Below are positions 37,699-48,222 of a DNA stretch of 64,000 nt, piece by piece. The stretch spans positions 1-64,000 of the forward strand of contig CAZPQW010000001.1 of assembly GCA_964588985.1 (NCBI GenBank), read 5' to 3'. The DNA comes from an uncultured Solirubrobacteraceae bacterium. Its GTDB lineage: Bacteria; Actinomycetota; Thermoleophilia; Solirubrobacterales; Solirubrobacteraceae. The translations under genes and the position numbers were made by a program. The notes beneath the pieces were generated by a model. That model was not told where the DNA came from. It did no database searches and was given only the letters and a program-made list of their open reading frames with translations. How positions within the stretch are numbered: the first letter of the stretch is position 1; the number at the start of each line of letters is the position of its first letter.

Positions 37699-38451
37699 CT
37701 ACGCCTGCGGTCTCGGTGAGGAGAGGTAGATTGCTCGTCCTGCTGCGCCCATGCCACACGGCTTCGGCGCGAACTCGGCTCTCAGACCATCTGGTACGCC
37801 ACGGATCTCGCCTCGGTTGTCAACGTCGAAGTTTTGTTGAAGACATCGAGTGAGCTGGGACAGGTAGGTGTCATATGCAAGCTGAGCAACTCTGTCGAGA
37901 TCATCGGGAACGAAACCAAGGCTCGCGCGGGGTGGAGGCACGGCGCCCGGTGGTCCGATCGTAACGCTTTCACTTGAATCCTCATCCATATCGACCGCAA
38001 TGAGCAGTGCGTGGGTATGAAGCTGGGGTGGTGGCTGATCAGCCTGCGGCAGGCGCGCAAATGAGTGAATAAATTGGGCCGCAATTGGAACGGCACCGAT
38101 CGCCACGCCGAGGTGAGCAAGTGCCATATCGACCGCCATCTGGTGCGCTTCGTCGATCGAGCTTTCGGACTCGGGATGGAGCACCCGTATGCTAGAGACG
38201 CTTACTGGTGCTGTGAATTGCAGCTCGACTACGGGGCCTAGCATCTCATTGGCTGCAACCAGATCGCCGATCCCGATCGGGCCATTGATCTTGAGTCCCA
38301 GCTCTGATGCGGCGGCCTGAGTCCCGAACCATCTCGATGGCGGCTCGATCGCGTGTTCATCTATCTCCACGAGTTCAAAGAGATACGAAGAGTCGACCGC
38401 GCTCGCTGCGCGCTGGCTGGATTTGCGGAAAGGGTTGAGCCTCAAGGCCAC
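37699..38451 (-). CDS. Stand-alone TrwC/MobF-like relaxase domain (possibly degenerate)
   Basis: EPPSRWFG..ELGL, ELQFTAPVSVS, AHQMAVDMALAHL, FIHSFAR..PQLHTH, EIRGVP..EF; GTG start 38451 inside ORF 37699..39117. Confidence 0.7.
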   Translation of the reverse strand: MALRLNPFRKSSQRAASAVDSSYLFELVEIDEHAIEPPSRWFGTQAAASELGLKINGPIGIGDLVAANEMLGPVVELQFTAPVSVSSIRVLHPESESSIDEAHQMAVDMALAHLGVAIGAVPIAAQFIHSFARLPQADQPPPQLHTHALLIAVDMDEDSSESVTIGPPGAVPPPRASLGFVPDDLDRVAQLAYDTYLSQLTRCLQQNFDVDNRGEIRGVPDGLRAEFAPKPCGMGAAGRAIYLSSPRPQA

Positions 38452-38494
38452 AACATCATAATGAGAGCTCGGTTGAGCGAGGGTGGTGCCGACG

Positions 38495-39934
38495 TCAGGC
38501 AACGACGCGCAGGTGTGAGCGCTTTGCCTTGTTGCCTTGCCGTTCCGCTCGTGCCGAGCGCCACTCGATATCGACCGGTCGCGGTCCGAAGCGCCGGAGA
38601 TCGTCGATTGCGAATGCGTAGTGCGCGTCGAGCATCTGCAGGCTCGTCCCGCACTCCTTCGCCACCGTCTGTGCGTCCTCTGCTCGAAGCCTGACGGAGA
38701 TGCCGCCGCGTCGCAGCGCGTAGGGGGTCGCGCCGAGGGTGTCGCGGAACTCAGGCTGCTCGGCGACCTTCGTGACGGCTGGGTTGAAGTAGTTCGGCCC
38801 CCACTTCTTCGCCTGGTTGCCGCTGAAGTGGCATGCGCCCGTGCGGGCGTCCTGGACGCCGTAATCAGCGCCGCCGAGATCGCCGGGGAAGATGAAGTCC
38901 ACATCGCGGGCTGGATGTCCCCAGCTGCGAAGCGCGTTGCGCCACTCCTCGAGATCTTCCACCGCGATGCTTGGGACGGCGGTTCGACGTTCGGTGCTGT
39001 GTTCGGTCTTGCCCCATTCGTCGAGCGCGCCCCAGGAGACGACCTCGACCACCTCCGCGTAGGACGCGTGGAGGGACATCCAGCGCATGCCCCAAACCTC
39101 CTGGTTGCGCGCGCCAAGCCCGTACTGCAGGCTCACGACCGCCGCGTCGCGCTGGGCAAAGATGGGGTCTCTGTCCTTGGATCGCAGGAGCATCTGTGCA
39201 CGGATCGCCTCGACCGCCCGCGGGGAGAGCGCCCAGCTCGGTATCTGCGATCCACGTCGGCGGCCCGCTGCTGCCGCGCCGGTGCCGCCTCGCCGGGAGG
39301 AGCGGCGTCTGCTGATAGTTCGCTCGTTGGCAAGGATGCACCCGTTGGTCTGGATCTCGGGCACGACGTGCGAGCCGGCGGCCCAGCTCAGAGCCGAGGA
39401 CAGCACGCTCCACGCCTGCTGACGCCTCGGCTGGGGCAGGTTCGCCTGAATCATCTGTTCGCGCCACGTCCGCGGCGCCTGCGGCTCGTTGAACATGGCG
39501 GCCGGCTGCGAGGCCAGCGCCACGGCGTATCGAGCCGGCGGGAGAGGCTCGCCCTTCGCGTTGTGCAGAGGCTTGCCGAGGATGTGGCAGTTAGCGGCCG
39601 ACGAGTACGCGGCGAACGTCGACGGCGCAAGACCCGCCTGGAGGCTCGGGTCGGCGTCCAACGCGAAGTAGAGCTCGACCACCTCTCCGATCGTGCGGGC
39701 GCTCGTCTCGTTGGCCTCCTTCGCGTCGAGATCCAGCAGGAACCTCCGCAGGCTGTCTACGCCCCGCCGCTCCGCCGTTATGTAGTCGTCCATCCAGACG
39801 CGGGCCTGTCGTGCCGAGGGGAAGTGCCGAGTCCGCTCCACCCGGTCGTGGTCGTAGAAGCCGACCGCGTAGGACTTGGCGCCGCGCTTGCCGACTCGCG
39901 GCCACGCCGAGGACTTCTTCCAAGGTCTACTCAT
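38495..39934 (-). CDS. int: Tyrosine integrase of the island
   Basis: N-terminal arm-binding-like region; GARNQEV, GKT, PYALRRG, CGTS..HY; adjacent to xis and attR. Confidence 0.85.
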   Translation of the reverse strand: MSRPWKKSSAWPRVGKRGAKSYAVGFYDHDRVERTRHFPSARQARVWMDDYITAERRGVDSLRRFLLDLDAKEANETSARTIGEVVELYFALDADPSLQAGLAPSTFAAYSSAANCHILGKPLHNAKGEPLPPARYAVALASQPAAMFNEPQAPRTWREQMIQANLPQPRRQQAWSVLSSALSWAAGSHVVPEIQTNGCILANERTISRRRSSRRGGTGAAAAGRRRGSQIPSWALSPRAVEAIRAQMLLRSKDRDPIFAQRDAAVVSLQYGLGARNQEVWGMRWMSLHASYAEVVEVVSWGALDEWGKTEHSTERRTAVPSIAVEDLEEWRNALRSWGHPARDVDFIFPGDLGGADYGVQDARTGACHFSGNQAKKWGPNYFNPAVTKVAEQPEFRDTLGATPYALRRGGISVRLRAEDAQTVAKECGTSLQMLDAHYAFAIDDLRRFGPRPVDIEWRSARAERQGNKAKRSHLRVVA

Positions 39935-40340
39935 CCGCTGCTCCCTCGATTGGTGTGGCGATCGCGGGAGGCGAGCCCGACGTGCGGTATTGAGCGCGCA
40001 GCTCCTCCAGACGCTCCGGCGAGAGGTCGTAGGCGACCGCCTCGCGCTTCAACGGAGGGCGACGGGCCTGTCCAGCGCGCCGCGTGCGTGGCGCTGGGTG
40101 TGCCCCGAGAGCCGTTCGGCGACGGTCGAGACCGGCGGTGTCGTTCTCGACCCAGAACTCGTCGATCGCCTCCAGCGGTATGCGGTAGTGCCCTCCTGGC
40201 AGGCGCCGATACCGGAGCCTGCCGATGGCGATGTAGCGACGCAGCGTGCGCTCGTGGACGCCGAGGGCGGCCGCCGCCTCGCCGGTGCTCAACACGCGAC
40301 GCGTGCCAGCACGTGCGCCGGAGTTGGAGGGTTTGCCCAT
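39927..40340 (-). CDS. xis: Excisionase-like HTH protein
   Basis: LSTGEAAAALGVHERTLRRYI..GRL..RLPGGHYRIP; overlaps integrase start by 8 nt. Confidence 0.82.
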   Translation of the reverse strand: MGKPSNSGARAGTRRVLSTGEAAAALGVHERTLRRYIAIGRLRYRRLPGGHYRIPLEAIDEFWVENDTAGLDRRRTALGAHPAPRTRRAGQARRPPLKREAVAYDLSPERLEELRAQYRTSGSPPAIATPIEGAADE

Positions 40341-40457
40341 GCCCCATCCGTCTCGATGGCGGGCCCTTCTCCCCCAGACGAATGTTCTGGATGCGTGCTC
40401 GGCCGTGGGCCTCAGAGCCCGCGTTCTCGGGGCCTGACGCTTCTCAAAACAGCGCGA

Positions 40458-40481
40458 ATCTGCGGTGCCGTTGCGGTGCCG
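40458..40481 (+). repeat. Putative integrase arm-type site, right
   Basis: ATCTGCGGTGCCGTTGCGGTGCCG, matches 12275-12298. Confidence 0.7.
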
Positions 40482-40543
40482 TTCGCGATCCCCATGAGCA
40501 GAAATGCTTATTTGCAGGCAGAAAGCCCCCAAATGCCCCGTGT

Positions 40544-40586
40544 CTCGTAATGAAGGGGTCCGGGGTTCGAGTCCCCGCGTCGGCTT
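40544..40586 (+). repeat. attR core (duplicated 3' half of tRNA-Thr)
   Basis: Exact 43-bp copy of 12150-12192; the 5' half of the tRNA is absent. Confidence 0.95.
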
Positions 40587-40648
40587 GCCTCGGTCTTCGG
40601 ACGGCGCCGCTTCACGGGGCTCGTGTGTGACCTCTACGATATTGGGAC

Positions 40649-42031
40649 TTACGCCGCCGCCGTGTAGGGCGGCGGAGGATCTGTTCCAGGCTTGGTGTTC
40701 GCCACTGCGGTGAGCTGATTGGGTGCGCGGAGATCGAGAGCGACTACCGAGTACTCGTTGCCGCCGTGGAGTAGGCGCAGGATGTCGGCCACGGCCACGG
40801 TGCTGGCGATCACGCCGACGAACGCCGCACCGACCGTGACGTCCGCGAACTCGAGCAGCCCGCAGCGCGCCGCGGACTCCTCCATACCACCCTCGATCTG
40901 GCGGGTTATCTCACTCTCATAGGCAGGCGCGAGGGCGGGGCGAGCCTGCGGGGTCTCCTTGAAGGCGGTCGCGGGGGATTCGACCGACGGGAAGGTATGC
41001 ACGAGCATGTCCAGGTACTCGTGCGGCCCGGCACCGAGGCCGGCGTCTACGACGCGATCGAAGCCCGCGCCCTCGAGCTGGCGACGTGGGGTGACGTCGT
41101 CGAACCCGGCCAGTGCGTTGCGCGGTTCGTTGCGCGTGGGTACTGCATGGGCCTGCGGGTGGAAGCTCTCATCAAAGGCTCGCTCAACGATCCTGGTCCC
41201 CAACCCGACCTGTTCGAGCGCGGCCGCGACGACGCGTGTCTTGCGCGAGCCTATGTCGCCGAGTCCTACGAGCAGCTGGGTGGCGATGTTGCCTTTGATG
41301 ACGGTGTCGAAGTCCAGCAGGCCGAGTTCGACCTCGCTGGGGTTGGCGTACGGCAGCATCCCGAGTGTCCACGCGTTGGCCTGCCCGAGGTGGCCGAGAC
41401 CCAGCAGCCATAGAGCCGCCGGAAGGTATTCGAGCGTAGGGCCGGGCGGTGCGGATCGCCAATCGTGATCGGTGCGCCAGAGCGAGATGCCAACCTCTCG
41501 CCGGCCGGGCACCGGGTTACCCAGCGACTGCTGGAAGATCTCCGAGACCCCGAGAGCGCCGGCCAAGATGCCGGCCGGGACGATCGCGGGGCCGCTCAGC
41601 CGGCGGTCCGGTGACTCTACGACCCCGCCGGTCCAGCCACCCCACGTGCAGTACAGGAGGGGCTGACCGACGGGGTCGCGCGGGTTGCCGATCACCATCG
41701 TCGGGAGGTCTGACTGGAGCTGGTCGACGACGGTGCCGCCGTAGCGGTTCACGACAGCCGTCGCCGCGAGCCCATCGGTCCAGCCGGTCTGAAGGGAGGG
41801 GTCGGTGTCGAGGAGGACGCGCACGCCGCCGTGGAACGCGCGTCGCCCGACGTTCACGACGGTGGCAAGAGCGGCCTGAGCGGCGCGATCGTGCTCGAGG
41901 TCCGGACCGACGGCGATCTGCAGGACGAGTTGGCTGAGAAACCGTCCAGCCTCGGCCGGGTCTTTGGCTTTGCCCGCGTCGATCAGGAGCTTGCCGGTGC
42001 GATGGAGGTCGTCGGCAGAGCCCCAGCTCAT
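40649..42031 (-). CDS. bilD: E1-like (ThiF-fold) ubiquitin-activating enzyme, BilD-like
   Basis: N-terminal inactive-adenylation-like half; GLGHLG, DFD, RKTR, VVDAGLG, AARCGLL..VGAAFVG Cys; ATGA overlap with JAB gene. Confidence 0.85.
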   Translation of the reverse strand: MSWGSADDLHRTGKLLIDAGKAKDPAEAGRFLSQLVLQIAVGPDLEHDRAAQAALATVVNVGRRAFHGGVRVLLDTDPSLQTGWTDGLAATAVVNRYGGTVVDQLQSDLPTMVIGNPRDPVGQPLLYCTWGGWTGGVVESPDRRLSGPAIVPAGILAGALGVSEIFQQSLGNPVPGRREVGISLWRTDHDWRSAPPGPTLEYLPAALWLLGLGHLGQANAWTLGMLPYANPSEVELGLLDFDTVIKGNIATQLLVGLGDIGSRKTRVVAAALEQVGLGTRIVERAFDESFHPQAHAVPTRNEPRNALAGFDDVTPRRQLEGAGFDRVVDAGLGAGPHEYLDMLVHTFPSVESPATAFKETPQARPALAPAYESEITRQIEGGMEESAARCGLLEFADVTVGAAFVGVIASTVAVADILRLLHGGNEYSVVALDLRAPNQLTAVANTKPGTDPPPPYTAAA

Positions 42032-42528
42032 GCCCTTCTCCCTATCAAGAGGTGTCGCTCGGCCTGCCTGCCAGTCCACGTTTCCCAGCCCTCGCCGTCG
42101 TAGCGGTGGACCCCTACGGTCCGCGGCTTGGTGGCTCGCATGGCGAGGTGGGGCACGATGAGGGCGACGTGCCCGGCTTGGGCGAGCATCGGGTTGGCGG
42201 CGTCGATCGGGCTCTGGCGGACGCCGCCGCCCGGATGGGTATGGACGTCCCCGATCACGCGGCGGTGCTCGGCGTCGCAGATGTCCCACAGTTTGCTGTA
42301 GGCAAGGCCGTCGAAGCTGATGCCGCCGGTCAGGCAGTTGGGGTCGAGGTCGTCGAGGTAGACGACCCGCGTCACGGTGGTCGGATCGCCGTGGCGGTCG
42401 GCGAGCAGGAAGGCGCCAGACTCACGTCGTCCCTGTCCGCGGCGCCCAAGCTCGGCGATCATCGCGTCCCACGCACTGCGGCGCATGCGCAGGAGCGCGT
42501 CGCGACGCCTATATGCCCAGATAGTCAT
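42028..42528 (-). CDS. bilC: JAB/JAMM metallopeptidase (deubiquitinase-like), BilC-like
   Basis: RESGAFLL..DVHTHPG..QSPID (E..HxH..S..D). Confidence 0.88.
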   Translation of the reverse strand: MTIWAYRRRDALLRMRRSAWDAMIAELGRRGQGRRESGAFLLADRHGDPTTVTRVVYLDDLDPNCLTGGISFDGLAYSKLWDICDAEHRRVIGDVHTHPGGGVRQSPIDAANPMLAQAGHVALIVPHLAMRATKPRTVGVHRYDGEGWETWTGRQAERHLLIGRRA

Positions 42529-42970
42529 CGGCGTTCAGGATGTTGTGGACGTTGCTGAGCACGAAGCTGATGTCGCGCGTGGGGTTCCACGCATCGTGGG
42601 GGTGCTTCTGAGCCCAGTCGGCGTGCGAGCCCAGGGCGATGCGGTCCCACGGGGCGTACATTGCAACGCCGTCGCCCCAGTCGGTACGGAACACGTGAGC
42701 GGCGCGATCGCCCTTGGGCCGATACGCCGGCGCGAGCGAGCAGCCCGCATCGTTATCCCAGAGGCTGCCGGTCGGCGCCGAGTGGGGGTAGCCGGCAACG
42801 TCGAGTCGCAACACGAACCCCTCGGGGCTCTTCGAGCGCGGCGCGGCCGAGATCACGAACGTGGCGTGAGGCCAAGTGAGCTCAATCAGTCGCCAGCGCC
42901 CGGCCTGTACTCCGGCCTGGAAGCGCGCCCCCTCGAGGTGGGTTCGCAGTGTGCGCTCGTCCGGCGTCAT
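42509..42970 (-). CDS. bilB: Prokaryotic E2/UBC-like protein, BilB-like
   Basis: GRW..WP, LRLDVAGYPHSAPTGSLWD, VFRTDW, YAPWDR..H.DW, VHNILN; sits between Ubl and JAB. Confidence 0.78.
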   Translation of the reverse strand: MTPDERTLRTHLEGARFQAGVQAGRWRLIELTWPHATFVISAAPRSKSPEGFVLRLDVAGYPHSAPTGSLWDNDAGCSLAPAYRPKGDRAAHVFRTDWGDGVAMYAPWDRIALGSHADWAQKHPHDAWNPTRDISFVLSNVHNILNADDYLGI

Positions 42971-43435
42971 TCAACCCTCGAAACGCGAGCGCGGCAGCAG
43001 GTCCAGCGTGACCGAGCACTCCCCTGGCTTAGTCAGCGCCCCGACGTGGACGCCGGGATCCAGGAAATGGTCGGCACCAGGAACGGCGAGGACATGCTTG
43101 GCGGCCTGCTCTTTGGAGAAATTCGCGACCTCGGGGCCAAAGGCCCATTTCTCGACCGTCTTGATCGTGCGCGACGGCCCGAAGCTGCGCTCGTGGGTGC
43201 CGTTCCAGCGGACGATGACCTCGACGTGGCGACAACGGCCGCGATGGACGTGGTGGCGGTGGTGGATCCCGGCGACGTCAAGCGTGAGATCGAGATCGAT
43301 CTCCTCGTCGACCTCCTCGATCCAGATCCCGCCGTCAGGGTCGTTCTCGACGAGGAGCGTGCGGACCGAGGCGGTCTCCTCGACCTCGATTATCTCTGGG
43401 TCCTCGGCCTCAGTTGTGTGCAGAAAAAGCTCCAT
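42971..43435 (-). CDS. bilA: Two-domain (ISG15-like) ubiquitin-like protein, BilA-like
   Basis: 154 aa; VHRGRCRHVEVIVRWNG..FGPS.TI..V.KWA..HVL..HVGAL..DLLP; ends in a free Gly (RFEG-stop). Confidence 0.82.
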   Translation of the reverse strand: MELFLHTTEAEDPEIIEVEETASVRTLLVENDPDGGIWIEEVDEEIDLDLTLDVAGIHHRHHVHRGRCRHVEVIVRWNGTHERSFGPSRTIKTVEKWAFGPEVANFSKEQAAKHVLAVPGADHFLDPGVHVGALTKPGECSVTLDLLPRSRFEG

Positions 43436-43494
43436 GGGACTCCTTGGCTAGAGCCGACGCCGAGGCGACGGCTACGATGAAGGGGAAACAAAAC

Positions 43495-43539
43495 CTTTAC
43501 CCGGCGAGTGTATCAAAAGATCTTTACCCACGAGGTAAA
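43495..43539. promoter_or_regulatory. Putative operator in the AT-rich divergent promoter region
   Basis: CTTTACCC at 43495 and 43522; palindrome TTTACC-N5-GGTAAA at 43523-43539. Confidence 0.55.
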
Positions 43540-43559
43540 TGAAAAAGCATGGCACGAGT

Positions 43560-43874
43560 ATGGACTTGGGCTTCGACAGCGATGGCTTGGCGGCGTTGTG
43601 CAACGCTGAACGACTGATGGTCGAACGCTGGGGTCCAGAGATGGGGAGGACCATCGAGAAGCGGCTCCTCGACCTGGCGGCTGCCACAGCGGCGACGATC
43701 GAGCGCATCCCCACGGCCAGCACGACCCGCGGCCGGGACGGCCAGATGACGATCACGTTCAACGGAGCGATCGTGATCAGCGGTCAGCTCATGGCGTGCG
43801 CTGACGGGGCTCGCAAGGACACCGATCAGTTCGTGATCGCGACCGTGATCGTCGACGAGAATAGGCGCCCATGA
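43560..43874 (+). CDS. HigB/RelE-like protein, apparently degenerate
   Basis: MDLGF..L..LCN..WG....I.KRL.DL.AA resembles the HigB N-terminus; C-terminal DYH absent (VDENRRP); ATGA overlap with HigA-like gene. Confidence 0.6.
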   Translation: MDLGFDSDGLAALCNAERLMVERWGPEMGRTIEKRLLDLAAATAATIERIPTASTTRGRDGQMTITFNGAIVISGQLMACADGARKDTDQFVIATVIVDENRRP

Positions 43875-44947
43875 AGGATTCGAGTACACCAATCGCGTTC
43901 CGCCCGGACTACGCCATAGCGCCCGGGGAGACCCTGCGCGACGCGTTGGCAGAGCAGAGCCTCTCCCAAGCCGATCTCGCGGCACGTGCCAGCCTCTCCG
44001 CCAAGCACATCAACCAGATCCTGCAGGGCATCGCGCCGATCACTCTGGAGACCTCAATCGTGCTCGAGCGGGTCACCGGGATACCGGCGAGCTTCTGGAA
44101 CAGGCGTGAGGCCGACTACCGCGAGACGCTGCTACGCCAGAAACAGCGAACGCTCTCGGACGACGACAAGGAGTGGCTCAGTTCCCTTCCGATCAAGGAG
44201 CTGCAGAGCCGGGAGAAGATTCCCCGGGAGAAGGATCGAGGTCGGCTGTTTGAGGCTGTGCTGTCGTTCTTCGGCGTCGCTGATCGTCAGGCGTGGGAAC
44301 GCATCTGGCATGGACCGGTCGCGTCGTTCCGGCGTTCGCACGCATTTACCAGCCATCCGGGCGCGATCGCCTCGTGGCTGCGCATCGCACAGCTCGATGC
44401 CCAAAACGCAAAGGCCGAACCGTTCAACGCAAGCGCATTTCGAAGAGTCCTTCGAGAAATCCGCGCGCTTACCGCCGACGGTGATCCGAACCTGATCGTG
44501 GAGATGTGCGCGACCGTCGGCGTGGTGGTGGTCTTCGTACCCGAGGTCAAAGGTTGCCGTATCAGCGGAGCGGCCTGGTGGGCAACTCCAGCCCGCGCTG
44601 TGATCGCATTGAGCGACCGATACAAGAAGGACGACTTCTTCTGGTTCACCTTCTTTCATGAGGCCGCACACCTGCAGCTGCATTCCAAGAAGGAGACTTT
44701 CGTTGATGACGGCAAGGACAGCGACGTCACCGAGGATGAGGCAAACGGCTGGGCCCAGGACTTCCTGATCCCGCCAGAGCGAGCTCTAAAGCTGCGTACG
44801 CTGCGTACTGACGCGCACGTCGCGGCGTTCGCGCGCGAGATCGGTATCGCCCCCGGGATCGTCGTCGGGCGAATGCAGCACGACAAAATCTGGGACTACC
44901 GCCAAGGCCACCACCTCAAGCGCTCAATGTGCATCGTCGAGACCTAG
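43871..44947 (+). CDS. HigA-type HTH fused to an ImmA/IrrE-family Zn metallopeptidase
   Basis: PDYAIAPGETL..SQADLA..KHINQI..G..PIT..FW; SDRYK.DD.FWFTFFHEAAH, EDEAN.WA..FLIP. Confidence 0.9.
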   Translation: MKDSSTPIAFRPDYAIAPGETLRDALAEQSLSQADLAARASLSAKHINQILQGIAPITLETSIVLERVTGIPASFWNRREADYRETLLRQKQRTLSDDDKEWLSSLPIKELQSREKIPREKDRGRLFEAVLSFFGVADRQAWERIWHGPVASFRRSHAFTSHPGAIASWLRIAQLDAQNAKAEPFNASAFRRVLREIRALTADGDPNLIVEMCATVGVVVVFVPEVKGCRISGAAWWATPARAVIALSDRYKKDDFFWFTFFHEAAHLQLHSKKETFVDDGKDSDVTEDEANGWAQDFLIPPERALKLRTLRTDAHVAAFAREIGIAPGIVVGRMQHDKIWDYRQGHHLKRSMCIVET

Positions 44948-45104
44948 CACGCCTGCTCGTCGCACCGGATCAGCAACGCGGACCTAAGTCCCGTTGATTC
45001 TTGGCTATGGCGTCGCGGCTACGTCACCGCCAACACGCTACCTCCTGTCCCCATTTGGCCGCGCCGAGCGTGCTGAACTATGCGGTCGTTTGAGTAGCAC
45101 TCGT

Positions 45105-46376
45105 ATGGTGTCGGCAATGGCAGGCGCAAACGCCGCGTTCAGGACCGTCTTCGGCGAGGGTTTGACGCCGGACGCGATCGGCGCAGCGCTCGCGGACCCA
45201 GTTAGTGCTACTGAGCGCCTGATCGCCGCATGGCACCGCGAACGAGTGATGCCAAGCGCTCTTCCACCGCTCGCCGTCGGCGAGCTCCGGCCACTGCTCG
45301 GCCATGGCTTCAGCCCAAACTGGCGCTACGGGCTCAGCTGGGCGGAGTCCGAGCTCGACCGCTTGACGATCACGCTGACGTACGCACACCGCGCCGTGCT
45401 CATTGACCCGTTCAGCTACCTCGAGGACATCCTTCGGAGCGATGCGATGACCGCCAGTGTGCTGGCCGGCATCCTGCACATCGTGGCATTCGTCGAGCCG
45501 TTGACCGAAGCCTCGACCGTATTGATGGTCACTGAGCCTGAGCAGGTGACCCGGCTTGGCCGGACTGGGCCTTGGCCAGCTATGAGGCCCTCTGGCCTCG
45601 TGACCGACGTCCGGGCCAAGATCGTGCGTCGGATCGAGGATGCCTTGGGGGTGTTTGACAACCAGCCCAACGAAGCGAGGTGGTCGCGCGGCATTGAGGA
45701 CAACGCGGTCGGTCGCGACGCCACGATCCACCTCATAAGACAGACCAACGCGATGGCCGGCCGGGCGCACCTTCTGTTCGAGGAGACCCACGACTGGGAT
45801 TTTGGCTACGGCCAGAGCAGGACCTTCGAGCGCATGATGATGTACGCGCAGCTACGTGCGTTGGCGCGTGCTGCCGTTCGCCATCGCGGGGAGGTCGGCA
45901 AGGTCCTACTCCTGCTACGACGCCCCATCCCCGACATGGCTACGGTGACGCCCACCGATCTTCTCGCGCTCCGGAGCAGCGACGGGTTCGGGCAGGTCCG
46001 TCACCAGGTTGGAGATGCACTGGAGCGGTATGAGATCGGAGTACGGGCCGGTCGCGCGGATGTTGGCGACGGCCTCGCGGACGAGCTGCGCGCCAGCGCC
46101 GAGGCGCTCGACGCCGAAATCGCCGCCTCAAGCGCGTTGACCGCGATGCGGCGCGGTGTTGCTGCGCTGAGCATGACGGCCGCGGCGCAAGTCGCACTGG
46201 CTCTGACGGGCATTGGCGCCGCCACCCCCGTAGAGCTCGCCACCCCCGCCGCCGTCGGTGCTCTTGAGTATGTCCGCGCGCTTGTAGCGGCCAGTTATGA
46301 ACGCGACCGGAACCGGTCGCTCGAGGCGCACGCGACGACTGTGCGCGCGGTCGCCGAACGTATGGCGCTCCTCTGA
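45105..46376 (+). CDS. Hypothetical protein with C-terminal hydrophobic helices
   Basis: Long ORF (423 aa from ATG 45105) with no recognised catalytic motif. Confidence 0.7.
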   Translation: MVSAMAGANAAFRTVFGEGLTPDAIGAALADPVSATERLIAAWHRERVMPSALPPLAVGELRPLLGHGFSPNWRYGLSWAESELDRLTITLTYAHRAVLIDPFSYLEDILRSDAMTASVLAGILHIVAFVEPLTEASTVLMVTEPEQVTRLGRTGPWPAMRPSGLVTDVRAKIVRRIEDALGVFDNQPNEARWSRGIEDNAVGRDATIHLIRQTNAMAGRAHLLFEETHDWDFGYGQSRTFERMMMYAQLRALARAAVRHRGEVGKVLLLLRRPIPDMATVTPTDLLALRSSDGFGQVRHQVGDALERYEIGVRAGRADVGDGLADELRASAEALDAEIAASSALTAMRRGVAALSMTAAAQVALALTGIGAATPVELATPAAVGALEYVRALVAASYERDRNRSLEAHATTVRAVAERMALL

Positions 46377-46599
46377 TCCGCGAGCCCCGACGCGGGTGTG
46401 GCCGAGCCCGCCCATTCGGCGGTCCGGCTGACGCTCAAGCAACGGCGAGGTGAAACGTGCCGTGAGCGCAGGGGAACTTCGTGACGAGCCGTCGCCGAGA
46501 GAGGTACGCTCGCCGTCTAAGTGTGCGCTTGGATCCTGCTCTCTCAGGGGCCTCTGGCGGGCGCGCGACGGCACCGCGCTGTCACCGCAAACGCGGGCC

Positions 46600-46692
46600 A
46601 TCGCGGTGATCGCCACGAACACCGATGCGATTCCGTTCTATGAGCGGCGGGGCGCGGTGCCGTTCGTGACGCAGTTCGTCAAACGCGTCTGA
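46600..46692 (+). pseudogene. C-terminal fragment of a GNAT acetyltransferase
   Basis: IAVIATNTDAIPFYERRG matches GNAT motif B (NxxAxxFYxxxG); upstream in-frame sequence is not GNAT-like. Confidence 0.6.
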
Positions 46693-46712
46693 GTCGACGC
46701 GCACAGTGGGCT

Positions 46713-47951
46713 CTAGCCCGGATGCCGCACCTCCGGCTTCCCAAAGACGATGCCCGTCGTCTTCATCAGAGTGCAGGTGCCGTGTGCCGGCGCGCAGTCC
46801 GCGGCGTTGCTGAACGCGCCATCGAAGCACGCGACGTAGCCCGGACGGCACTTGTTCTGTTCTTCCAACGGTGGCCCCGCTTTGGGTGCATCGGATATCC
46901 AGTAAGTGGTGGAGTGGTCCTCGGCGATCGCCGCGACGATCCCCGGGCCGCCGGTGGCGGCACGCCACCTGTGAGTCGTGGTCGAGTAGGACTCGAAGCT
47001 CGAGCGGATCTCCTCGGGGCCGCTCCCCATCGGGCCGCAGTCGCCTTCGATCGCCGTGTAGAGGACGTTTGCGTTGGCCACGCTCGGGGAGATGCCTTCG
47101 TAATAGCCGCACGTCCCGCTCACGAAGCGCTCCGCGATGATCTGGCTGGGCGCCGACTGCCGGGCGCCTCTCAGAGGATCCGCGCGGAGTTCTGGAAACG
47201 GCGATTCTCCGAACGTGGCGGTGCTGGTCGACCATTCGTAGCTCAGGACGCTCGCGTCGAGCGACATACCGTCGACCCACGCGGACGGTGGTTCGCCGTT
47301 GCGCCTTTCGCACCGCGACGTGCTCGACGGGCACGGGCCGCTGCCTCCCCCGACGCGGACCAGGCGATGACGGGCGCGCTGCCAGACGTAGATCCTTGCC
47401 ACGTGCGAGTGAGCAGCCATCCGCGCGAAGGCGATCTCCCCCTTCCAGATCGCCGGCGTCGAGTCCGACGCGCCACTCGCGCGAATGCCCCGCACGAGCC
47501 GAGGCGACCCGCCCGGTATCGCCAGTTCGTAGATCCGGCAGCCGCGCGCTCTCGCCCAATCTGGCTCTCGCAGGTACTCGCTGCCCGCCAGTTCCGACGA
47601 AGAGCTCGGAGGGTCTTGCGTGCACCGTGAGTAGACGACAGTCGGCCTGCCGCTCGGGCCAGGGCCCGCAGCGGCGTCGAACGGCATGCTCCGCGCGGGG
47701 ACGTTCAGGGGTGTGATCGTGCCTGCGTGCCAGACCATGAGACGCCAGCTGCTCGTGCTCGGTTCGTCTTGGCTGAACACCACGTAGCCGTCGTAGGCCG
47801 TGAGCCGTTGTGCGACGTTCGCGAGCGGTGCCAAAGCCAGAGAGCCGGCTCTGGCTGGGCTCGGGGTGGCGTTGGCGGCGCAGAGAGATGCGGCCAGCGC
47901 AGCCACCGCGATCAGCATGCCCTGTCGACGTGTTCTCGATATCCGGTCCAT
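46713..47951 (-). CDS. Hypothetical secreted protein
   Basis: Signal peptide (MLIAVAALAASLCAA..ARA), beta-rich body with paired Cys. Confidence 0.72.
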   Translation of the reverse strand: MDRISRTRRQGMLIAVAALAASLCAANATPSPARAGSLALAPLANVAQRLTAYDGYVVFSQDEPSTSSWRLMVWHAGTITPLNVPARSMPFDAAAGPGPSGRPTVVYSRCTQDPPSSSSELAGSEYLREPDWARARGCRIYELAIPGGSPRLVRGIRASGASDSTPAIWKGEIAFARMAAHSHVARIYVWQRARHRLVRVGGGSGPCPSSTSRCERRNGEPPSAWVDGMSLDASVLSYEWSTSTATFGESPFPELRADPLRGARQSAPSQIIAERFVSGTCGYYEGISPSVANANVLYTAIEGDCGPMGSGPEEIRSSFESYSTTTHRWRAATGGPGIVAAIAEDHSTTYWISDAPKAGPPLEEQNKCRPGYVACFDGAFSNAADCAPAHGTCTLMKTTGIVFGKPEVRHPG

Positions 47952-48222
47952 GTGGCCCCCCGATTCCATTTGTCGGTCTACTCGACCTTTCAACCCATCA
48001 TGACCCAGTTCGGCGCGGTCGAGTCCGGTCGCTCGCATTCGGGCAGGGTCCGAGACATTGCGCCGCCGCGTCATCGCTGTCCCACGCGGTCGAGATCAAG
48101 CACCATCTTCGAGCTATTGACTGTCTACGCGTAGTCGGCGTATGGTTGCCTGCGAGGGACTGCTTGGTGACGTCCGTTCAGGCGTGTCCGGCAGGAGAGG
48201 GATAACTAACTAAGGGGAATAA

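Follow-up and report, generated by a model that had tools for sequence, protein, structure and literature searches.

A type I BilABCD operon has reportedly been described by Millman (2022) in Collimonas sp. OK412. Type I Bil is a system that defends against phage through attachment of a ubiquitin-like protein to a phage protein. In the literature, Bil figures as the bacterial equivalent of the eukaryotic E1-E2 thioester relay, and published accounts treat the Bil E2 Cys as conserved and catalytic. According to Hör et al., the mutation C385A in the Collimonas E1 abolishes the adduct of E1 with the ubiquitin-like protein (Ubl~E1), Cys113 of the E2-like protein BilB is essential, and no Ubl~E2 thioester is detectable even in this Cys-type system (10.1101/2023.09.04.556158). 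For the type II BilB of Ensifer aridi TW10 (the CEHH protein; 8TYZ and 8TZ0), the published account reports that conjugates require Cys138 and that in the crystal this residue is joined to E1 Cys417 by a disulfide, names Cys138 and the nearby His151 as the two CEHH residues common with type I, and calls the E2 Cys "highly conserved" across types I and II (10.1101/2023.09.26.559546). Here, we analyze a stretch of 64,000 nucleotides from an uncultured Solirubrobacteraceae bacterium (contig CAZPQW010000001.1 of assembly GCA_964588985.1; the whole stretch is referred to as the window), in which positions 40649-43435 of the minus strand hold what is, as judged by sequence, a complete and regulated type I BilABCD anti-phage operon.

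A comparison of this operon with that of Collimonas reveals that it is type I Bil by every feature except the E2 Cys. The gene order Ubl-E2-JAB-E1, the terminal Gly of the ubiquitin-like protein BilA and the E1 Cys (C385 in Collimonas, C390 in the window) are common to both, whereas the window BilB has a Trp at the slot corresponding to the essential Cys113 and no conserved Cys. A substantial part of type I BilBs also lack this Cys, and the description of the E2 Cys as highly conserved is not borne out by the type I BilBs sampled here. A description of a Cys-less type I BilB was not found in the literature searched, with supplementary operon lists and BilB logos lying outside that search.

The bilB gene (42509-42970, minus strand) encodes an E2-like, UBC-fold protein of 153 amino acids without a catalytic Cys, which is matched by the PADLOC BilB model (5.3e-56) and by Pfam PF24702/DUF7665 (7.4e-44). 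Its active-site motif reads M-Y105-A-P-W108-D-R (codons of Y105 to R110 at 42641-42658, minus strand), with the TGG codon of W108 at 42647-42649 (minus strand), and its sole Cys is C77 (TGC, 42740-42742, minus strand). The first-pass annotation of this DNA had pointed to the Trp in the catalytic Cys slot and to the single Cys, and both are confirmed by the 153-residue translation and by alignment with Cys-type relatives. W108 is assigned to the slot of the E2 catalytic Cys because of the homology to Cys-type type I BilBs, the C/X...H...W spacing and the place before helix 110-115. The segment LYVPCDR...GH..W of a Xanthomonas plasmid BilB aligns without gaps to MYAPWDR...SH..W of the window protein. 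A HMMER search of 1.84 billion cluster representatives yields 415 relatives at E <= 0.001, and among the best 150 of these 415, the pattern Y/F-x-[PAST]-C-D-R is present at exactly slot 108 in 36. When this set is filtered for full-length proteins (140-185 residues, with Y105, D/E109, R110 and H116 intact), 100 representatives are retained, and column 108 is the only column with a Cys in all 25 of the Cys type. In five Cys-type representatives (158-161 amino acids) the motif Cys is residue 113, in agreement with C113 of Collimonas BilB, which therefore supports the slot identity; this correspondence rests on the motif, the residue number and the Cys-type relatives. The YxPCDR motif that the annotation gave for BilB proteins fits these Cys-type members (the 36 representatives above, and YVPCDR in Xanthomonas) and does not hold for the family as a whole.

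The residues surrounding the slot are retained. In an alignment of 101 sequences, P85, Y105, R110 and H116 are invariant and D109 is nearly so, and H116 (codon at 42623-42625, minus strand) is the only invariant His in type I BilB. Located eight residues after the slot, H116 is proposed, from the spacing, as the equivalent of His151 of E. aridi BilB. The window protein keeps the whole active-site framework (Y105, P107, D109, R110, H116 and W119), the pattern Y-x-P-X-D-R...H...W is common to the window and the Cys-type members, and conservation of the framework is equal across the Cys, aromatic and other slot classes. The residue at position 106 covaries with that at 108: a slot Cys is accompanied by Leu or Ile in 17 of 25 cases, and a slot Trp by Ala in 11 of 19 and by Arg in 7 of 19, which suggests that the slot side chain may have a packing role.

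W108 and Y105 are present in all of 103 close homologues (43-95% identity to the window BilB), and the Trp codon is TGG in 27 of the 27 examined. A private mutation, which had been named as a possible refutation of the Trp reading, is excluded by the homologue set, and a private or erroneous codon is likewise rejected, TGG being found in 27 loci. C77 fares differently. Cys occupies that column in 11 of the 103 homologues, the closest relative (P0001, 95% identity) has a Tyr there, and 47 of the 103 contain no Cys at all. Among the full-length representatives with a slot residue other than Cys, 18 of 75 are also entirely free of Cys, and no column other than the slot holds a Cys in more than 16 of the 75. 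C77, which had been put forward as an alternative nucleophile, is rejected as the catalytic residue on these counts, and judging from its conservation it is no substitute for the catalytic Cys. It is very probable that Trp occupies the catalytic-Cys slot throughout a lineage that is functional.

The replacement is not confined to Trp. Among the best 150 of 415 representatives, the slot is occupied by C in 36, Y in 26, W in 25, F in 20, L in 9, V in 8, I in 6, M in 5 and T in 3, with H, G, P and R once each and 8 gaps. The 100 full-length representatives give a similar distribution, with C 25, Y 21, W 18, F 13, V 6, L 5, I 4, M 4, T 2, H 1 and G 1. Genome loci were sought by BilD and not by the BilB motif, and the best 80 of 471 relatives in species-representative genomes were used together with four plasmid loci and the window. 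Three broken genes in this set are unreadable, and the 76 loci with a readable slot comprise 34 C, 29 W, 8 F, 3 Y, 1 S and 1 M. The lists of representatives and of genome loci are ranked by likeness to a W-type query, so the non-Cys share in them is overstated. A less biased sample consists of 18 plasmid records, in which the slot is C in 11, W in 3, Y in 2, L in 1 and A in 1; these were taken from 30 records with a BilB match, the other 12 being of the same species, identity and E-value as those taken. Cultured strains with a non-Cys system in this sample include Rhizobium anhuiense T24 and Rhizobium sp. N621 (W-type), Paraburkholderia caffeinilytica CF1 and Mesorhizobium sp. AR02 (Y-type) and Sphingorhabdus sp. 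YGSMI21, whose L-type BilB contains no Cys. Whole clades of Cys-less type I BilB are found in Actinomycetota, Chloroflexota and Alphaproteobacteria. The interpretation given in the first-pass annotation is supported in part, and the substitution is wider than it supposed, with Y, F, L, V, I, M and other residues also in the slot.

Ser is present at the slot in 1 of the 76 readable loci and in none of the 100 representatives. The single Ser variant, YLPSDR with codon AGC, is from a Longilinea metagenome-assembled genome (L056) and lies at zero branch length beside the Cys-type loci L058 and L061 in the BilD tree; the Ser either arose very recently or reflects a sequencing error. Additionally, BilB is found at the C-terminus of proteins of 314-355 amino acids (P0115, P0154, P0161, P0179, P0196, P0222, P0246 and P0252) and at the N-terminus of proteins of 285-312 amino acids (P0178 and P0202), which are possibly Ubl-E2 and E2-JAB fusions.

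The partners of BilB were examined across the same loci. The four PADLOC Bil models (BilA, BilB, BilC and BilD) all match the window proteins nearly end to end, and neighboring genes abut or overlap. The open reading frame (ORF) of bilA (42971-43435, minus strand; PADLOC BilA, 1.6e-38) encodes a ubiquitin-like protein of 154 amino acids, a length that by itself is enough for two beta-grasp domains. Its C-terminus reads ...R-F-E-G, with the terminal Gly directly before the stop codon, and the stop abuts the bilB start (TGAATG). The bilC gene (42028-42528, minus strand; PADLOC BilC, 1.3e-58) encodes a JAB/MPN peptidase of 166 amino acids, overlapping bilB by 20 nucleotides and bilD by 4 (ATGA). 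The Pfam Prok-JAB match of BilC (2.9e-4, 21.1 bits) falls under the curated 25-bit cut-off, and the JAB motif HTHPGGGVRQSPID is present. The E1 gene bilD (40649-42031, minus strand; PADLOC BilD, 4.3e-142) encodes 460 amino acids when read from the ATG overlapping the stop of bilC; the PADLOC match begins at residue 87 of a longer ORF of 546 amino acids. BilD C390 (codon at 40862-40864, minus strand) is probably equivalent to C385 of Collimonas, as indicated by its position and conservation.

The Cys-Gly pair of BilD (C390-G391) is present in every intact BilD regardless of the BilB slot, that is, in 27 of the 29 W-type loci (BilD is truncated in the other two) and in all of the F, Y, M and S types. 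Both residues are invariant in 5 of 5 and in 28 of 28 BilDs, and no other Cys is invariant. A terminal Gly is seen on BilA at 25 of the 29 W-type loci and 28 of the 34 Cys-type loci, most of the remaining BilAs being contig-edge genes or wrongly picked ORFs; the JAB motif of BilC occurs at 25 and 33 of these loci, respectively. In pairwise comparisons of the window with 13 W-type loci, the ratio of nonsynonymous to synonymous substitution rates (dN/dS) of bilB is 0.11-0.51. The non-Cys BilB is therefore not decayed, because its framework is invariant, its dN/dS is in this range, and the BilA Gly, the BilC motif and the E1 Cys-Gly are all kept. Among the BilAs of L006-L085, the C-terminal tail follows the clade: that of the main Cys clade is ...R-[V/I]-E-G, and the mixed W/F/Y/M clade has ...R-F-[E/A]-G, also in the Cys-type member L048. 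The spacing of the BilC motif differs between clades in parallel with this tail.

For 72 operons, a BilD tree was computed with a quick method; it is unrooted and carries long-branch warnings for the plasmid rows. On this tree, the slot state must have changed at least 10 times, and at least 6 changes are needed between Cys and non-Cys; shuffled labels need 31.6 changes on average, and none of 200 shuffles is as low as observed. One clade of 31 rows contains 30 C and 1 S, and another of 37 rows contains W in 23, F in 8, C in 3, Y in 2 and M in 1. The W slot occurs in three separate places of the tree, and the window falls in a 12-row, all-W clade (support of 100 in the Shimodaira-Hasegawa-like approximate likelihood ratio test) that is nested in a clade of 21 rows, 20 of them W and the other F. 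The expectation in the first-pass annotation that E1, JAB and Ubl are intact, and that PWDR defines clades with intact partners, is supported by this tree together with the invariant C390, the BilA Gly and the JAB motif. A single base separates each of TGG, TAY and TTY from the Cys codons TGY, and these distances would fit repeated loss of an ancestral Cys, the tree being unrooted.

An AlphaFold2 model of BilB, built on the 101-sequence alignment, has a predicted local distance difference test score (pLDDT) of 98.2 and a predicted template modeling score (pTM) of 0.92. In the model, strand 4 is followed by a long loop and then by W108, immediately ahead of helix 110-115. The H-P-N string is absent from the BilB sequence, and the BilB loop is much longer than that of canonical E2s. 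Foldseek returns three matches at E <= 0.001, all of them E. aridi BilB chains (best 8tyz_C, 8.3e-5), and the top match in VIA-align is also E. aridi BilB (8tz0_C; Z 12.3, root-mean-square deviation 3.3, 132 aligned residues). Z is 8 or more for 392 of 999 aligned chains, and the matches listed are almost all E2s (Z 9.3-12.3). Neither phmmer with BilB nor hmmsearch with the 101-sequence profile finds any PDB chain at E <= 10, so the link to E2 structures is by fold only.

The E. aridi protein, the closest fold, shares with the window BilB the UBC fold, the long loop before the active site and the His after the slot, although no sequence similarity between the two is detectable and the window BilB is without the Cys138 of its counterpart. 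There are strong indications that W108 corresponds to Cys138, the fold alignment being given in ranges of residues. The predicted protein thus has the UBC fold and lacks the E2 active-site Cys, with a Trp at the slot and an unconserved Cys77, which is the combination that characterizes ubiquitin E2 variants (UEVs). In VIA-align, the Cys-less Mms2 and UEV-1 (1j74, 2a4d) match the model at Z 9.6 each and eukaryotic active E2s at Z 9.3-11.0; BilB thus matches the UEVs no better than the active E2s, and it has no sequence match to Mms2, UEV1 or TSG101. A prediction of the BilD-BilB complex with alignment input scores 0.26 against a mark of 0.32, was run without controls, and counts neither way. 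PF14459, the N-terminal domain of type II BilD, has no match in genome G001 and none that passes the curated threshold in 201 genomes from the family of G001, and a BilD profile search of 301 genomes returns only 5 loci, all of type I.

Several systems in which Ubl conjugation proceeds with a Cys-less E2 fold, or with no E2 at all, are pertinent to this operon. UEVs such as Mms2 and UEV1A are Cys-less UBC folds that orient the acceptor lysine non-covalently toward a thioester held by a partner. That partner is an active E2 (Ubc13), whereas the sole thioester carrier in the mechanism proposed below for Bil would be the E1. In the E1-only conjugation of archaea and Thermus (SAMP/UbaA and TtuB/TtuC), Ubl is joined to lysine without a thioester-forming E2; these systems have no E2-fold protein at all, unlike the window operon. 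The Cap2 E2 domain, cited earlier as a Cys-less precedent, does not serve as one: it has an E2 Cys, C109, without which neither conjugation nor defence takes place. BubB is, like the window BilB, a bacterial E2-like protein without a catalytic Cys within a bona fide conjugation operon. BubB, however, has an invariant Ser at the slot, accompanied by a His and an Asp or Lys, that forms an oxyester, and its E1 is without the Cys and uses a Tyr (10.1101/2024.11.21.623953), whereas in the window the slot residue is not a nucleophile, the invariant Ser of the Bub type is absent and the E1 Cys is kept. Genuine examples of an E2 fold without the Cys are provided by the UEVs and the Bub E2, neither of which is a close relative.

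There is about an even chance that two things hold jointly, namely that the lineage of the window BilB, a large one maintained by purifying selection, has lost the E2 catalytic Cys, and that this BilB has a non-covalent, UEV-like role. In such a mechanism, BilD would adenylate the C-terminal Gly of BilA, and its Cys390 would then take BilA as a thioester, as suggested by homology to Collimonas; this BilD~BilA thioester is inferred because C385A in Collimonas abolishes the Ubl~E1 adduct. BilB, unable to accept BilA as a thioester, would act as a non-covalent E2 variant: it may dock on BilD, recognize a phage protein as the target and either place or activate the lysine of this protein for direct attack on the BilD~BilA thioester. 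BilC would subsequently trim or recycle the conjugates. Direct transfer from E1 with BilB as an adaptor is offered tentatively, its chances falling somewhat short of even. This E1-direct, E2-adaptor mechanism is compatible with all the findings, and the absence of a detected Ubl~E2 thioester in Collimonas is counted in its favor. If the Cys-less systems do keep all their other parts under selection, either an E2 fold is able to promote Ubl transfer with no covalent intermediate or a new intermediate chemistry is at work. Either outcome bears on the evolution of E1-E2 cascades and on the minimal catalytic contribution of the UBC fold.

Several observations weigh against direct transfer with BilB as an adaptor. 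The mutation C113A in Collimonas BilB abolished defence (10.1101/2023.09.04.556158) and C138A in the type II E. aridi BilB abolished conjugates (10.1101/2023.09.26.559546); the E2 relay is therefore real at least in type II. The step from E1 directly to the target is pure inference for the non-Cys BilBs, and the match of W108 to Cys138 is given by an alignment of fold ranges. The non-Cys share is inflated in the best 150 of 415 representatives and the best 80 of 471 loci, and stands at 7 of 18 in the plasmid sample. Additionally, the invariance of Tyr105 and His116 allows for a covalent intermediate that does not involve a thiol.

A more general form of the adaptor mechanism is that the UBC-fold protein of type I systems is a non-covalent catalyst and substrate receptor that drives the E1~Ubl thioester onto the target lysine and is never a thioester carrier, which we regard as doubtful. 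The slot Cys would then be dispensable, having given way time and again to W, Y, F or aliphatic residues, and the effect of C113A in Collimonas would reflect the loss of a bulky packing residue and not of a nucleophile, an account that is doubtful to the same degree. Were it true, Bil would be a two-enzyme ubiquitination cascade in which the E2 fold works like an E3, and possibly an extant stage between Ubl conjugation by E1 alone and the relay from E1 to E2.

The room left by Tyr105 and His116 defines an alternative in which BilB does carry Ubl, on a non-thiol nucleophile, either as an oxyester on Tyr105 or as an acyl-imidazole on His116. The invariance of these residues in 101 sequences and the near invariance of D109 are consistent with such chemistry, as is the presence of Tyr in the slot itself in 21 of 100 representatives, and the Bub pathway offers a precedent in which a Tyr oxyester on E1 and a Ser oxyester on E2 are accompanied by a His and an Asp (10.1101/2024.11.21.623953). 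However, Y105 and H116 are equally invariant in the Cys-type members and therefore represent a general site, not a replacement that arose with the loss of the Cys. Trp, Phe, Leu, Val, Ile and Met cannot be nucleophiles, and therefore the family as a whole cannot be explained by one chemistry at position 108, while Ser, the Bub solution, is at the slot once in 76 readable loci. We consider a non-thiol carrier unlikely.

It is quite improbable that the non-Cys operons no longer conjugate through BilB, which would instead have been repurposed, for instance to sense phage proteins, to regulate or inhibit BilD, or to bind Ubl non-covalently, so that the system departs from the Collimonas paradigm or acts only when another E2 complements it. 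The Cys-less E2 folds Mms2, UEV1 and TSG101 are non-catalytic, the first two of these folds (Mms2 and UEV-1) match the BilB model as given above, and the operon contexts differ, with a divergent regulator containing helix-turn-helix (HTH) and M78 domains at W-type loci and an upstream UvrD-like helicase-nuclease at 24 of 34 Cys-type loci. Nonetheless, the whole conjugation kit (the E1 Cys, the BilA terminal Gly and the JAB peptidase) is kept under selection beside the non-Cys BilB, the genome holds one BilB-family gene only, and no second E2 is seen among the ORFs of the locus. Finally, it is most improbable that slot 108 is not catalytic in type I BilB and that the E2 alignment is off, with the true residue elsewhere, for example at C77: although sequence profiles reach no solved E2 and the fold alignment is in ranges, column 108 alone is Cys in all 25 Cys-type representatives, the C77 column is Cys in 11 of 103 homologues of which 47 have none, the slot is located just before a short helix as in UBC folds, and Collimonas 113 is the index of the motif Cys in five representatives.

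The operon of the window faces a divergent regulator gene (43871-44947, plus strand) encoding a 358-residue fusion of HTH_3 and Peptidase_M78 (ImmA/IrrE) domains (Pfam, 2.3e-7 and 7.6e-9) that resembles CapH/CapP. W-type operons are usually preceded by a divergent HTH_3-Peptidase_M78 regulator, as in L006 (1086-2159, minus strand) and L021 (1183-2385, minus strand). The family of the window regulator is found upstream of 15 W-type loci and 1 F-type locus, and a second HTH-M78 family upstream of 9 W-type loci and 1 C-type locus. The gene for a UvrD-like helicase with a PD-(D/E)XK nuclease, a large gene clipped by the locus edge, lies directly upstream of bilA in the same orientation at the 24 of 34 Cys-type loci mentioned above and at one W-type plasmid locus (L004); examples are L059 (7-2328, plus strand) and L065 (49-2361, plus strand). 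This upstream gene suggests a five-gene Bil subtype.

On the other side of the window operon, bilD is adjoined by an ORF of the HTH_17/MerR type, which is excisionase-like (39927-40532, minus strand), and an ORF of 479 amino acids without a Pfam match is present nearby (38495-39934, minus strand). The operon may be on an integrated element. Both strands of window positions 38000-48000 contain many long antisense ORFs over real genes, as expected in G+C-rich DNA, and two families of such antisense shadow ORFs recur across the loci and are not genes. Of the weaker plasmid matches to BilD, one (L087) is a fragment, and another is a BilD-like E1 with 29% identity on a plasmid of Burkholderia cepacia ATCC 25416 (L086, 1449-6031). 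The latter is preceded by genes for proteins of 201 and 347 amino acids, which have no match to the BilB model, and followed by a gene for a patatin-like phospholipase, and it may belong to a different E1-centered system.

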